Shown here in pieces: positions 21,578 through 34,578 of a stretch of DNA of 64,000 nt (position 1 is its first letter; each line of letters opens with the position of its first letter). Below the pieces are notes generated by a model. That model worked only from the letters and a program-made list of their open reading frames with translations, searched no databases and was not told where the DNA came from. The DNA is from Escherichia coli (GTDB lineage Bacteria > Pseudomonadota > Gammaproteobacteria > Enterobacterales > Enterobacteriaceae): the NCBI RefSeq assembly GCF_003019035.1, contig NZ_CP027447.1; one strand, written 5' to 3'. Position numbers and translations under genes: made by a program.

Positions 21578-23116
21578 ATGCAACAGCAAAAACCGCTGGA
21601 AGGCGCGCAACTGGTCATTATGACGATTGCGCTGTCACTGGCGACATTCATGCAGGTGCTGGACTCCACCATTGCTAACGTGGCGATCCCCACTATCGCC
21701 GGGAATCTGGGCTCATCGCTCAGCCAGGGAACGTGGGTAATCACTTCTTTCGGGGTGGCGAATGCCATCTCGATCCCGCTTACCGGCTGGCTGGCAAAGC
21801 GCGTCGGGGAAGTGAAACTGTTCCTCTGGTCCACCATCGCCTTTGCTATTGCGTCGTGGGCGTGTGGTGTCTCCAGCAGCCTGAATATGCTGATCTTCTT
21901 CCGCGTGATTCAGGGGATTGTCGCCGGGCCGTTAATTCCGCTTTCGCAAAGTCTATTGCTGAATAACTACCCGCCAGCCAAACGCTCGATCGCGCTGGCA
22001 TTGTGGTCGATGACGGTGATTGTCGCGCCAATTTGCGGCCCGATCCTCGGCGGGTATATCAGCGATAATTACCACTGGGGCTGGATATTCTTCATCAACG
22101 TACCAATTGGCGTGGCGGTGGTGTTGATGACCCTGCAAACCCTGCGCGGACGTGAAACCCGCACCGAACGGCGGCGGATTGATGCCGTGGGGCTGGCACT
22201 GCTGGTTATTGGTATCGGCAGCCTGCAGATTATGCTCGACCGCGGTAAAGAGCTGGACTGGTTCTCATCACAGGAAATTATCATCCTTACCGTGGTGGCA
22301 GTGGTGGCTATCTGCTTCCTGATTGTCTGGGAGCTGACCGACGATAACCCAATAGTCGATCTGTCGTTGTTTAAGTCGCGCAACTTCACCATCGGCTGTT
22401 TGTGTATCAGCCTCGCGTATATGCTCTACTTCGGCGCTATTGTTCTGCTGCCGCAGTTGTTGCAGGAGGTCTACGGTTACACGGCAACGTGGGCAGGTCT
22501 GGCCTCTGCGCCGGTAGGAATTATTCCGGTGATCCTGTCGCCGATTATCGGCCGCTTCGCGCATAAACTGGATATGCGGCGGCTGGTAACCTTCAGCTTT
22601 ATTATGTATGCCGTCTGCTTCTACTGGCGTGCCTATACCTTTGAACCGGGTATGGATTTTGGCGCGTCGGCCTGGCCGCAGTTTATCCAGGGTTTTGCGG
22701 TGGCCTGCTTCTTTATGCCGCTAACCACCATTACGCTGTCCGGTTTGCCACCGGAACGACTGGCGGCAGCATCGAGCCTCTCCAACTTTACGCGAACGCT
22801 GGCGGGGTCTATCGGCACATCGATAACCACGACTATGTGGACCAACCGCGAGTCGCTGCACCATGCGCAGTTGACTGAGTCGGTAAACCCGTTCAACCCG
22901 AATGCCCAGGCGATGTATAGTCAACTGGAAGGGCTTGGGATGACGCAACAGCAGGCATCAGGCTGGATTGCCCAGCAGATCACCAATCAGGGGCTGATTA
23001 TTTCTGCCAATGAGATCTTCTGGATGTCAGCCGGGATATTCCTCGTCCTGCTGGGGCTGGTGTGGTTTGCTAAACCGCCCTTTGGCGCAGGTGGCGGCGG
23101 AGGCGGTGCGCACTAA
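21578..23116 (+). CDS. emrB: multidrug efflux MFS transporter (14-TM)
   Basis: ORF 21569..23116; start at ATG 21578 (MQQQKPLEGAQ...), 512 aa. Confidence 0.9.
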   Translation: MQQQKPLEGAQLVIMTIALSLATFMQVLDSTIANVAIPTIAGNLGSSLSQGTWVITSFGVANAISIPLTGWLAKRVGEVKLFLWSTIAFAIASWACGVSSSLNMLIFFRVIQGIVAGPLIPLSQSLLLNNYPPAKRSIALALWSMTVIVAPICGPILGGYISDNYHWGWIFFINVPIGVAVVLMTLQTLRGRETRTERRRIDAVGLALLVIGIGSLQIMLDRGKELDWFSSQEIIILTVVAVVAICFLIVWELTDDNPIVDLSLFKSRNFTIGCLCISLAYMLYFGAIVLLPQLLQEVYGYTATWAGLASAPVGIIPVILSPIIGRFAHKLDMRRLVTFSFIMYAVCFYWRAYTFEPGMDFGASAWPQFIQGFAVACFFMPLTTITLSGLPPERLAAASSLSNFTRTLAGSIGTSITTTMWTNRESLHHAQLTESVNPFNPNAQAMYSQLEGLGMTQQQASGWIAQQITNQGLIISANEIFWMSAGIFLVLLGLVWFAKPPFGAGGGGGGAH

Positions 23117-23125
23117 GGTTGTCAA

Positions 23126-23150
23126 AGGGAGCTGCGGCTCCCTTTTTATT
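23126..23150 (+). terminator. intrinsic terminator after emrB
   Basis: AGGGAGC-TGCG-GCTCCCT stem-loop followed by TTTTT. Confidence 0.75.
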
Positions 23151-23373
23151 TGCTCATTCTGTAAACGGTTGTTTTATCCTCTCATTCGGTGTATCTTTTC
23201 GCCGCCCCAAACTCTTCCATTCACCATTAACCGGTTCTGAGCATTCGCTCAGGTTGTTAATTCTCTTTTTCCTTCGCCCTCGCTTTCGCGGGTGATACTC
23301 ACATTTTTCTTTTAACCCCATAACTCGCACCCTCGCGGGCGTACATTTATTACACACAAAATAATGGATTATT

Positions 23374-24081
23374 ATGAATACCCAACGGAAATACGGGAGA
23401 ACCTGGCATTATCCTTTCTCCCCTGGCACCACCAGCGATGACCGCATTAACGCCGATTACTGGCAGGATTTACAGGCCATCACGCAATTGGTGCACACAG
23501 AAAAACTCGACGGCGAAAATAACTGCCTTAACCGCTACGGCGTGTTTGCCCGCTCCCATGCCGCGCCTACGCAGTCGGCATGGACCTATAAAATTCGCCA
23601 ACGCTGGCAACTGCTGAAAAACGATCTCGGCGACCTGGAGTTGTTTGGTGAAAATCTTTATGCCGTCCATTCGATTGAATATCGCGCCATGGAGCAGGAT
23701 TTTTATCTGTTTGCCGTTCGCTGCCAGGATATGTGGCTGAGCTGGGAAGAGGTGCAGTTTTACGCCGCTCTGTTTGATTTCCCCTGCGTTCCCGAAATCT
23801 CCGGCCCGCAGCCGGGGAATGATGAAAAAAGCTGGCAACGTGATTTTTTGGCGCTGACCAATGCGCGCGGCGCGTTCGATCCCTGGGATACGCAAACTGG
23901 GCAACCCTGTACGCTGGAAGGCATTGTCAGCCGGAATCGTGACGCGTTTTCCGTCGCTGACTTTTCGCATAACGTCTTCAAGTATGTGCGCAAAAATCAT
24001 GTCAAAACCACCGTGCACTGGAAACGACACTGGCAACGGGCGCGGATGGCCCATGAGTTCGCTTATGGAGAACAGTCATGA
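23374..24081 (+). CDS. ATP-dependent RNA ligase-like nucleotidyltransferase (235 aa)
   Basis: Covalent nucleotidyltransferase motifs visible: motif I KLDGEN (Lys at about nt 23503), motif III-like ELFGENLYA, motif IV-like LEGIVSR, motif V-like FKYVRKNH. Confidence 0.55.
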
Positions 24082-25190
24082 TTTGGCAGCTTACCGACGA
24101 CAAACGCTGGTCGACGCTACGCCAGCGTTTCAGTTGGGTTGAGGAGATGCATCACACGCCACAAGACCCGGAGCATCATGGTGAAGGTGACGTCGGCGTG
24201 CATACCGAAATGGTGCTTAACGCCCTCGTTACTCAGCCAGAATTCCAGCAACTCCCCGCTCAACAGCAGGAAGTTTTATGGGCGGCGGCGTTATTGCATG
24301 ATGTTGAAAAGCGCAGCACTACCGTGCAGGAAAACGGACGTATTCAGTCGCCTGGCCATGCTCGTCGGGGCGAACTGACGGCCCGACAAATTTTATGGCG
24401 CGATATCCCAACGCCGTTCGTGCTACGCGAGCAAATTGTTGCGCTGGTGCGTCTGCATGGGCTACCGCTATGGTTACTGGAACGTCCGGAACCGGAGCGT
24501 TTGCTGCTTACAGCTGCAATGCGCATCGACACGCGTTTGCTCGCTTTGCTTGCTCGTGCCGATCTGCTTGGTCGCCAAAGCCCGGATCAGCAATCAATGC
24601 TGGAACGCATAGATCTGTTCGAGCTGTTTTGCCATGAGCAACAATGCTGGGGAAAAGCGCGCCCGTTCGTGTCTGATTCCGCACGCTGGCACTACCTGAC
24701 TCATGAGCAAAGTTCTACTGATTTTGTTCCCTGGGGGGCTGAACCTTTTGAGGTTATTTTGCTGTGTGGCTTACCGGGTATGGGCAAAGATCGCTATATC
24801 AGTGAACAGTGCCAGGGAATTGACGTTATCAGCCTTGATGATATGCGGCGGCGAATCAATGCTAGCCCGGATGACAAAACCGCTACCGGGCGTATTGTGC
24901 AACAGGCAAAAGAAGAGGCGCGCGTTTTTTTACGCCAGAAAAAGCCGTTCATCTGGAATGCAACGAACATTACCCGCCAGCTGCGTAGCCAGCTCATCAA
25001 TCTGTTTACGGCTTACGGCGCACGAGTAAAAATCGTTTATCTGGAAGTGCCATGGGCGCAATGGAAGCAGCAAAATGCCAGACGCAAGTATGCAGTTCCT
25101 GAAGCGGTCGTGATGCGGATGGCCTCAAGGCTGGAAGTTCCTCAACCTGATGAAGCACATAGCGTGGAGTATCGGGTGATTGAAAGGTAA
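24078..25190 (+). CDS. HD-domain phosphohydrolase fused to P-loop kinase (370 aa)
   Basis: N-terminal HD motifs ([17 protein letters not shown]); C-terminal Walker A-like GLPGMGKD; start overlaps upstream stop (ATGA), implying translational coupling with the ligase-like gene. Confidence 0.55.
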
Positions 25191-25229
25191 AAAAACCGGG
25201 CGGTGGTGTCACCTGCCCGGCTTCTTTTG
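25189..25229. terminator. bidirectional intrinsic terminator between the accessory cassette and luxS
   Basis: A-tract, CCGGGC...GCCCGG stem-loop, then CTTCTTTTG. Confidence 0.7.
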
Positions 25230-25238
25230 TTCCACTGA

Positions 25239-25754
25239 CTAAATGTGCAGTTCCTGCAACTTCTCTTTCGGCAGCGCCAGTTCTTCGTTGCTGTTGATGC
25301 GCACGTCACGTTCCAGAATGTTACGCGCAATATCCTGCGCTTCCTGCAACGAGTGCATCTGGTAAGTGCCACACTGGTAGACGTTCAGTTCCGGGATCTG
25401 ATTCTGATCCTGCACTTTCAGCACGTCTTCCATTGCCGCTTTCCAGGCATCAGCGACACGCTGCTCATCTGGCGTACCAATCAGACTCATATAAAAACCG
25501 GTGCGGCAGCCCATTGGCGAGATATCGATAATCTCTACGCCATTACCGTTAAGATGGTTACGCATAAAACCAGCAAACAGGTGCTCCAGGGTATGGATCC
25601 CTCTTTCTGGCATCACTTCTTTGTTCGGCACGCAGAAGCGCAGATCGAACACGGTGATTGCGTCGCCATGCGGGGTGTTCATTGTTTTCGCCACCCGAAC
25701 TGCAGGCGCTTCCATCCGGGTATGATCGACTGTGAAGCTATCTAACAACGGCAT
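25239..25754 (-). CDS. luxS: S-ribosylhomocysteine lyase (AI-2 synthase)
   Basis: 171 aa; LuxS sequence with HTLEH metal-binding motif. Confidence 0.95.

Positions 25755-25903: not shown

Positions 25904-27487
<1,584 letters not shown>

Positions 27488-33437: not shown

Positions 33438-34578
<1,141 letters not shown>

Follow-up and report, generated by a model that had tools for sequence, protein, structure and literature searches.

The 64,000 nucleotides (nt) of Escherichia coli DNA analyzed here (contig NZ_CP027447.1 of assembly GCF_003019035.1; "the window" in what follows) carry, between emrB and luxS, two overlapping genes whose products are a ligase-type nucleotidyltransferase (open reading frame 1, ORF1) and a protein combining an HD phosphoesterase domain with a polynucleotide-kinase-type domain (ORF2, or HD-Pnk). 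Judged by the two protein sequences, the pair belongs to the ligase/HD-Pnk cassette of Runella and Deinococcus and is not a new design. It is a candidate system for mending broken polynucleotide ends; the cassette is real and is probably functional in this strain.

Gene organization of the emrB-luxS locus

The two genes and their overlap are as follows:

23374..24081, plus strand: ORF1, the ligase gene, 235 amino acids (aa); ATP-dependent ligase-like covalent nucleotidyltransferase of the DR_B0100/LigB type
24078..25190, plus strand: ORF2, the HD-Pnk gene, 370 aa
24078..24081, plus strand: ATGA overlap, the TGA stop of ORF1 over the ATG start of ORF2

The first-pass annotation of this stretch, made from the letters alone, had described two ATGA-coupled genes at 23374-25190, and their coordinates, strand, lengths and overlap were borne out. 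The overlap suggests translational coupling. On the same strand, emrR, emrA and emrB lie 5′ of the pair, and luxS and gshA lie 3′ of it on the opposite strand. In K-12, luxS was said to come straight after emrB, and this is indeed so: in MG1655 emrB ends at 2814154 and luxS occupies 2814218-2814733, leaving a gap of 63 bp. The corresponding gap in the O157:H7 strain TR01 is 64 bp. Read against TR01, the edges of the additional DNA are the following:

23151..25206, no strand: extra segment of 2056 bp, absent from K-12 and O157:H7 (junctions read against TR01, locus L003)
23124..23150, plus strand: emrB terminator hairpin AAAGGGAGC-TGCG-GCTCCCTTT plus T run; stem-loop at 23124-23145, folding energy (dG) -15.7 kcal/mol, z -3.5
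25196..25229, plus strand: terminator hairpin 3′ of ORF2, CCGGGCGG-TGGTGTCA-CCTGCCCGG then CTTCTTTT; stem-loop at about 25196-25222, dG -19, z -2.8

Terminators on both sides of the pair had also been predicted, and the two hairpins, each with its T run and each stabler than shuffled controls, agree with this. The emrB terminator forms the left edge of the extra segment, and the same hairpin is retained in the TR01 empty site; the terminator at 25196..25229 also faces the 3′ end of luxS.

The ligase-type protein

ORF1 matches the Pfam family RNA_ligase (PF09414, E 1.6e-27) over residues 38-205, which cover model positions 2-171 of 171. All the nucleotidyltransferase motifs quoted in the first-pass annotation are present (KLDGEN at 44-49, ELFGENLYA at 89-97, LEGIVSR at 181-187 and FKYVRKNH at 202-209), and motifs I, III, IIIa, IV and V of the ATP-dependent polynucleotide ligases follow one another in the canonical order. 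Motif I holds the predicted attachment site of adenosine monophosphate (AMP):

23503..23520, plus strand: ligase motif I, KLDGEN, with the predicted AMP-attachment residue K44

Conservation was read from alignments of 19 and 60 homologues, down to 29% identity. Invariant in both are K44, D46, G47 and N49 of motif I (KxDGxN), R60-S61, E93 (motif III), F113 (motif IIIa), E182, G183 and V185 (motif IV) and K203, V205 and R206 (motif V). By these motifs, ORF1 is a ligase-family covalent nucleotidyltransferase with a conserved motif I lysine. A further set of invariant residues is specific to the family: Y7, H12, G18, D22 and D23 before motif I, and H209, H215 and W216 after motif V.

The 60-sequence alignment was used to build an AlphaFold2 model, which had a predicted local distance difference test (pLDDT) score of 90.2 and a predicted TM-score (pTM) of 0.88. 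Compared with the PDB by Foldseek, its best match was the nucleotidyltransferase domain of the Naegleria Rnl5 enzyme NgrRnl (E 6e-7, TM-score about 0.49), and T4 Rnl2, the adenylyltransferase domain of the fungal tRNA ligase Trl1, archaeal Rnl3 and a trypanosome editing ligase were also matched, all with TM-scores of about 0.5. All but one of the 33 PDB matches with E ≤ 1e-3 are RNA ligases, the exception being Aquifex 3qwu, deposited as a putative DNA ligase; characterized DNA ligases appear only from E 2.6e-3. By sequence, the only PDB matches were spurious, low-complexity ones to hemocyanin repeats of molluscs, and a profile search of PDB sequences gave no match; hence this ligase clade is without a solved structure. 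Neither NCBIfam nor PADLOC has a model for ORF1.

ORF1 consists of a bare nucleotidyltransferase domain with short conserved N- and C-terminal segments, and the extra domains specific to the Rnl1-Rnl5 subfamilies (C-terminal in Rnl1-4, N-terminal and OB-like in Rnl5) are absent from it. Its sequence shows no detectable similarity to that of DraRnl (DR_B0094), an Rnl5 ligase encoded near the pair in Deinococcus. Comparative genomics has placed HNH-fusable ligases of this sort loosely in the "Rnl2 family" (PMC7824862). A tblastn search of plasmids found homologues of both proteins on the Deinococcus radiodurans megaplasmid MP1. The homologue of ORF1 is DR_B0100 (LigB/DdrP), 35% identical over the full length (E 2e-26), with its K40 opposite K44; K40A is the mutation that Blasius et al. 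built in DR_B0100, according to their primer sequence (PMC1997131).

The HD-Pnk protein

ORF2 has two domains:

24078..24710, plus strand: N-terminal HD phosphoesterase domain, approximately residues 1-210
24750..25190, plus strand: C-terminal P-loop polynucleotide 5′-kinase domain, residues 225-370

The HD domain and P-loop kinase announced by the first-pass annotation were found with their motifs at the quoted positions (an HD-domain segment at 33-42, LLHDVEK at 72-78 and GLPGMGKD at 231-238), and domain searches and folds agree. Among 73 homologues, the near-invariant residues of the HD domain are H34, H42, H74-D75, K78, H94, H127, D162 and R166, and those of the kinase domain G231, P233, G236, K237, D254, R257, R303, N333 and R336. 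The kinase domain matches Pfam AAA_33 (E 2.6e-31); its Walker A motif is G231-K237, and the Asp and Arg of the SDFCR segment in Clostridium thermocellum Pnkp (CthPnkp) are aligned to D254 and R257. The model of the protein (pLDDT 97.1, pTM 0.94) has CthPnkp, T4 Pnk, PSTK and Pnkp1 as the nearest relatives of its kinase domain, with mammalian PNKP among the top fold matches. The HD domain is of the CCA-adding-enzyme type, nearest to the body/HD region of tRNA nucleotidyltransferase.

By its motifs and folds, then, ORF2 joins an HD phosphoesterase to a P-loop domain of the polynucleotide-kinase type, and it has the features of an HD-Pnk: a metal-binding HD domain with the H...HD...D signature; a P-loop kinase with the Walker A lysine, Asp and Arg; a partner ligase gene that is adjacent, upstream and overlapping; and homology along nearly its whole length (residues 5-369 of 370) to a characterized member, DR_B0098 (28% identity, E 2e-31). 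The HD motif named in DR_B0098, H81-D82 (PMC1997131), lies opposite H74-D75. ORF2 does not have the organization of T4-type Pnkp, in which an N-terminal kinase precedes a C-terminal DxDxT acyl-phosphatase; its order is reversed and its phosphatase is of the HD type. The first-pass annotation implied that an HD domain in place of the usual phosphatase was new. This was mistaken, since HD-Pnk with a partner ligase has been in the literature since 2007-2018. The sequence and structure checks it proposed turned out in its favor: profile searches and structure prediction placed ORF1 in a ligase family and found the HD and kinase residues of ORF2 conserved, and alignment of the locus with K-12 and other E. 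coli confirmed the extra segment. None of the outcomes it had named as fatal (a non-ligase family for ORF1, missing HD or kinase residues in ORF2, or a conserved core gene pair of known unrelated function) was encountered.

Distribution and evolution at the emrB-luxS site

The pair occupies the emrB-luxS site in 998 of 5426 complete E. coli genomes (18%), among them O25:H4, sequence type 131 (ST131) and Nissle 1917, where the PGAP labels are "RNA ligase family protein" for the ligase and "ATP-binding protein" or "AAA family ATPase" for HD-Pnk. A K-12-type contiguous spacer of 63 bp, with an unrelated terminator (AGCCAGTTCATTTGAACTGGCT), is found in 4313 genomes. In the rare third state, seen in TR01, the emrB terminator is of the window type and the ORF2 terminator is reduced to its 3′ half, whose survival marks the TR01 empty site as a deletion scar. 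E. coli thus has at least three spacer states, and about 110 genomes match none of them cleanly (states compared over window positions 23117-23150 and 25207-25238, L003 1517-1582 and L093 4155-4219). Outside E. coli, the same site is occupied in E. albertii, Citrobacter amalonaticus, Klebsiella spallanzanii, Kosakonia, Phytobacter, Enterobacter sp. and Superficieibacter. We found no paper that mentions emrB, luxS and an RNA ligase together.

Both genes are maintained by purifying selection, with ratios of nonsynonymous to synonymous divergence (dN/dS) of 0.03-0.07 for the ligase and 0.11-0.17 for HD-Pnk. Together with the Pfam E-values of the two proteins (1.6e-27 and 2.6e-31), these ratios show that the gene pair is not a product of chance. 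The synonymous divergence (dS) from E. albertii is 0.27-0.38 for the pair and 0.25-0.42 for the flanking core genes, and the GC content of the segment is 52.3% against 52.0% in its flanks. Low dN/dS, dS and GC content like those of the flanks, and the deletion scar of TR01 all point to long residence and not to a recent insertion. We infer that the pair has long resided at this site in Enterobacteriaceae and was lost from most E. coli lineages.

These same data bear on a rival idea, which we regard as very improbable: that a mobile element or prophage left the pair behind as a decaying, now functionless remnant. The pair is indeed strain-variable in E. coli, and it has homologues on plasmids and in jumbo phages. 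However, both frames are intact and under the selection just described, dS and GC content are those of the flanks, and synteny holds in at least six Enterobacteriaceae genera. No integrase or insertion sequence is present at the locus, no target-site duplication was found when the junctions of 23151-25206 were compared with TR01, and the TR01 scar indicates loss of the pair rather than a recent insertion.

The allele carried by the window is itself rare: over window positions 23100-25260, two genomes match it at ≥ 99% identity, and most carriers are about 96% identical. The adjacent gshA (25904-27460) is 97.7-98.6% identical to that of most E. coli. Against another E. coli carrier, dS reaches 0.2-0.37 in emrA, emrB and the ligase gene. 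The rarity of the allele and the high dS suggest old alleles or recombination in the region.

The leader region

Upstream of the ligase gene lies a conserved non-coding region:

23151..23373, plus strand: leader/promoter region of 223 nt, 5′ of the ligase gene
23236..23253, plus strand: palindrome/hairpin TCTGAGC-N4-GCTCAGG followed by a T-rich stretch; dG -10.9, z -3.3

The leader is conserved in blocks among Escherichia, Citrobacter, Klebsiella, Kosakonia, Enterobacter sp. and Superficieibacter, and its fold has a z-score of -2.65. The blocks TTGTTT ... TATCTT are a possible -35/-10 promoter pair. The palindrome, which is accompanied by two GC-rich hairpins, could be an attenuator or an operator; as its stem is invariant and only its loop varies, covariation gives no evidence for an RNA structure over a protein operator. 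A search of every retrieved locus, together with an nhmmer profile, placed it only in the Enterobacteriaceae loci at the emrB-luxS site, which means that it does not belong to the cassette in general. In an Rfam scan, the leader yielded only sub-threshold chance matches. There is no LexA box in the leader. The same scan caught, as a positive control, the perfect box CTGTATGCTCATACAG at 34561-34576, which stands some 50 nt upstream of the recA gene (33438-34514, minus strand) and is its known SOS operator. An antisense ORF of 67 aa at 23154-23357 was dismissed: it lies within the leader, and indels between genera break its frame.

Gene context in other genomes

The HD-Pnk family comprises 553 clusters at 50% identity (E ≤ 1e-30). 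For a census of gene context, 80 species-level genomes of Enterobacterales and Bacteroidota were recovered with HD-Pnk, using an 11-sequence query alignment. In 80 of 80 genomes, HD-Pnk is immediately preceded on the same strand by the ligase gene (confirmed by tblastn at two loci); as a rule, the two either overlap, which is the usual arrangement, or stand no more than about 20 nt apart.

The most informative neighbor is an RtcB-family ligase gene, found on the same strand within about 2.3 kb of the pair at 18 of the 80 loci. Some 16 of these are tight same-strand arrays, rtcB-prfH-ligase-HD-Pnk or rtcB-ligase-HD-Pnk, from Serratia, Bacteroides, Phocaeicola, Parabacteroides and Dysgonomonas (loci L007/L008, 2520-6116; L021-L023; L034, L035, L041, L043-L045, L056, L069, L072, L074, L079 and L087); the remaining two are from Flammeovirgaceae, with rtcB about 2.2 kb off. 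The prfH gene (TIGR03072, E about 1e-93) is present at 10-12 census loci. In an unbiased clustering of neighbors, rtcB and prfH were the only families that recur across unrelated lineages; the other recurrent neighbors reflect lineage-specific housekeeping synteny (dnaB-alr-tyrB and uvrA in Xenorhabdus, emrRAB and luxS in Enterobacteriaceae). Neither rtcB nor prfH lies within the 64-kb window. RtcB2-PrfH has been shown experimentally to act in ribosome rescue and in the repair of 16S rRNA cut by colicin E3 (PMC9304027, PMC9223846), and we found no mention of the ligase/HD-Pnk neighbors in the accessible literature on that module. This linkage favors RNA as the substrate of the cassette.

Other contexts are more scattered. 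On Pseudomonas and Bacillus plasmids the order is reversed, HD-Pnk then ligase, in a more distant clade. The plasmid of Pseudomonas sp. FeN3W (L012, 3379-5675) encodes a ligase with an HNH-like N-terminal extension and has recX, a Fic gene and umuDC next to the pair. Some HD-Pnk homologues are fused to HNH (distant-clade proteins P0252 and P0320; Pfam HNH E 6e-7 in P0252). The uncultured 462-kb phage LR756500.1 (L094, 5584-7787) carries an intact pair in the same order as in E. coli, with a ligase of 364 aa that has an N-terminal extension and an HD-Pnk of 368 aa. Jumbo phages of Caulobacter, Agrobacterium and Sinorhizobium have the ligase without HD-Pnk. In a comparative review of jumbo phages, sets of ligase, kinase and phosphoesterase are viewed as counter-measures to host attack on tRNA (PMC7824862).

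Linkage to the 2′-phosphotransferase Tpt1, as in Runella, was absent from two Emticicia loci, from other Cytophagales loci and from the 80-locus census; the neighbors in Emticicia and Cytophagales are ribosomal protein genes and the like. We take these organisms to be relatives of Runella, Emticicia presumably belonging to the same family.

Proposed function

Our proposal, to which we give a probability of about 0.6, is that ORF1 and ORF2 work as a unit of two enzymes, first healing and then sealing broken polynucleotide ends, with RNA of the translation apparatus as the favored substrate. A single transcript with coupled translation would supply both proteins. The HD domain of ORF2 would strip 2′,3′-cyclic, 3′- or 2′-phosphates from the 3′ end of the break, and its P-loop domain would phosphorylate the 5′-OH end; ORF1 would charge K44 with AMP from adenosine triphosphate (ATP), pass the AMP to the new 5′-phosphate and join this end to the 3′-OH. 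The favored targets would be tRNA or rRNA cut by metal-independent RNases, and the damage could come from colicins, contact-dependent or type VI effector RNases, toxin-antitoxin nucleases or anticodon nucleases. Reversal of anticodon-nuclease damage to tRNA, the role put forward by the first-pass annotation, is a plausible one. RNA is favored here because the family and fold neighbors of ORF1 are RNA ligases, because the HD domain is like that of a tRNA-end enzyme and because of the linkage to rtcB and prfH. In this scheme the inferred elements are strand sealing, the choice of RNA as physiological substrate and the origin of the damage.

By analogy with characterized homologues, ORF2 is expected to be a 5′-kinase and a 2′,3′-phosphoesterase, and ORF1 to adenylylate itself. 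The HD-Pnk of Runella slithyformis is described as an N-terminal HD 2′,3′-phosphoesterase with a C-terminal 5′-OH kinase (Munir & Shuman 2017, J Bacteriol 199:e00739-16, via PMC6097658), and DR_B0098 is a 5′-polynucleotide kinase (PMC1997131). Of the three RNA-repair activities claimed for the pair by the first-pass annotation, the two of ORF2 thus have precedents among homologues. The third, sealing, fares less well, as the two studied orthologous ligases form enzyme-AMP but did not join standard substrates alone. RNA as the target, also part of that claim, is favored by the rtcB/prfH linkage, whereas the radiation data from Deinococcus point to DNA.

The DNA explanation is a serious rival, although we consider it unlikely. 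Here HD-Pnk would clean 3′-phosphate/5′-OH DNA termini, the ligase would seal the nick, and the Deinococcus phenotype would reflect the true function. Mammalian PNKP, acting with a DNA ligase, is a parallel for such repair of dirty DNA ends, and it is among the top fold matches of the ORF2 kinase domain, as noted above. DR_B0098 phosphorylated a DNA 25-mer; its partner DR_B0100 self-adenylylates but alone showed no DNA ligase activity (PMC1997131), and a later study reports that DR_B0100 ligated DNA, but only when DR_B0098 and PprA were both there. The DR_B0100-DR_B0098 operon is radiation-induced, and its mutants, that of HD-Pnk included, are reported to be sensitive to ionizing radiation. 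These results weigh against our proposal, as do the recX and umuDC genes beside the Pseudomonas plasmid pair, the lack of any match of ORF1 or ORF2 to the anti-phage defense models of PADLOC-DB 2.0, the lack of a regulator or damage sensor encoded beside the E. coli pair, and the build of ORF1, whose substrate selectivity cannot be read from its sequence because it has no extra nucleic-acid-binding domain. An action on DNA, however, sits poorly with the Pfam family and nearest folds of ORF1, which are RNA ligases with DNA ligases ranking lower, with the resemblance of the HD domain to a tRNA-end-processing enzyme, with rtcB and prfH, genes of RNA and ribosome repair, as the only neighbors recurrent across phyla, and with the failure of DR_B0100 alone to ligate DNA. 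Nor does the E. coli leader hold a LexA box, in a scan that detected the recA control.

A different difficulty concerns the joining step. ORF1 may not be a general strand joiner: it may need a special end, such as a 2′-phosphate, or a special target, such as a break in the ribosome or in one tRNA, or it may only mark the 5′-phosphate of RNA or DNA with AMP, HD-Pnk in each case preparing the ends. Fungal and plant tRNA ligases, for instance, require a 2′-phosphate end. We hold this to be quite unlikely, even if some findings agree with it. Two orthologues, those of Deinococcus and Runella, self-adenylylate without ligating generic substrates; the Runella ligase formed enzyme-AMP and ligated none of the tested substrates (PMC6097658), which is a further point against our proposal. 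ORF1 is moreover a nucleotidyltransferase domain only, from a clade without a solved structure, and its family-specific invariants lie outside the classic motifs. On the other hand, the motifs for all three ligation steps are conserved in it. The 2′-phosphate variant draws on the Tpt1 gene reported in the Runella cluster (PMC6097658). This gene is unlinked in Emticicia and in the census, and the Runella HD-Pnk, described in that source as a 2′,3′-phosphoesterase, would remove a 2′-phosphate and not leave it.

A more specific version of the healing-and-sealing proposal can be put forward tentatively. The pair may be the ATP-dependent second arm of a network for the repair of ribotoxin damage, beside RtcB2-PrfH, its minimal ligase being specialized for a context-bound break (in a tRNA anticodon loop, or in the rRNA of a rescued ribosomal subunit), and it may give E. 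coli a strain-variable tolerance to RNases. Specialization of the ligase for a particular break context would explain the failure of the orthologues on generic substrates. In that event, 18% of E. coli genomes, including ST131 and Nissle 1917, would carry a determinant of tolerance to the RNases of colicins, contact-dependent inhibition and type VI secretion systems, or to the self-cleavage of RNA by defense systems. Textbooks describe E. coli as lacking a 5′-polynucleotide kinase; this would then hold for some E. coli lineages only.

The E. coli copy is the easiest genetic system for deciding between RNA and DNA as the physiological substrate of the cassette. K-12, which is without the pair, and the clinically and commercially important carriers ST131 and Nissle 1917 offer ready backgrounds for gain and loss of function. 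The rtcB-prfH-ligase-HD-Pnk operons provide a concrete hypothesis, namely protection from colicin-type RNases. Furthermore, that some E. coli encode a predicted polynucleotide 5′-kinase and an ATP-dependent ligase bears on RNA-end biology and on strain extracts.

Comparison with characterized systems

The closest systems are those of Deinococcus and Runella. In the DR_B0100-DR_B0099-DR_B0098 operon, as in the E. coli pair, the ligase gene comes first. The Deinococcus operon, however, has the PARG-type gene DR_B0099 between ligase and HD-Pnk (L001, 6873-7730), whereas the E. coli pair has no middle gene; a PARG-type gene accompanied the pair at 0 of the 80 Enterobacterales and Bacteroidota loci. 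A 2025 paper reports that PARGs of the DR_B0099 type strip ADP-ribose from the 5′-phosphate ends of RNA and DNA. The two systems also differ in setting, the Deinococcus operon being megaplasmid-borne and radiation-induced and the E. coli pair chromosomal and without an SOS box.

With Runella slithyformis, E. coli shares the HD-Pnk architecture and the layout of the genes: a ligase-like ORF directly precedes HD-Pnk and overlaps its start (PMC6097658). That cluster adds genes for Tpt1 and for a methyltransferase-HIT protein upstream, and none of these is near the E. coli pair or in the Emticicia loci. The likeness to Runella rests on this published description; for Bacteroidota homologues, including Emticicia, the identity to the E. 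coli proteins is 52-58% for HD-Pnk and 58-65% for the ligase, and the proteins of Emticicia and other Cytophagales/Bacteroidota show 53-63% identity in the comparison with Runella relatives.

Other repair systems differ in their domains. The phosphatase of T4 Pnkp is a DxDxT acyl-phosphatase and that of C. thermocellum Pnkp a binuclear metallophosphoesterase; ORF2 uses an HD domain, with phosphatase before kinase. T4 Rnl1 and Rnl2 and the Rnl4 enzymes carry C-terminal domains, whereas ORF1 is a nucleotidyltransferase domain of 235 aa without them. The Rnl5 enzymes, DraRnl (DR_B0094) and NgrRnl, include its best structural match, NgrRnl, but ORF1 lacks their defining N-terminal OB-like domain. 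The bacterial Pnkp-Hen1 system includes the Hen1 methyltransferase, which the E. coli cassette does not have.

RtcB2-PrfH is the system that the genomes themselves place beside this one, as the two share an apparent operon in Serratia and Bacteroidales. Both would mend breaks in RNA whose ends are a 2′,3′-cyclic phosphate and a 5′-OH, by different chemistries: RtcB joins a 3′-phosphate or 2′,3′-cyclic phosphate directly to a 5′-OH with guanosine triphosphate (GTP), whereas the E. coli cassette would convert the ends first and then use ATP.

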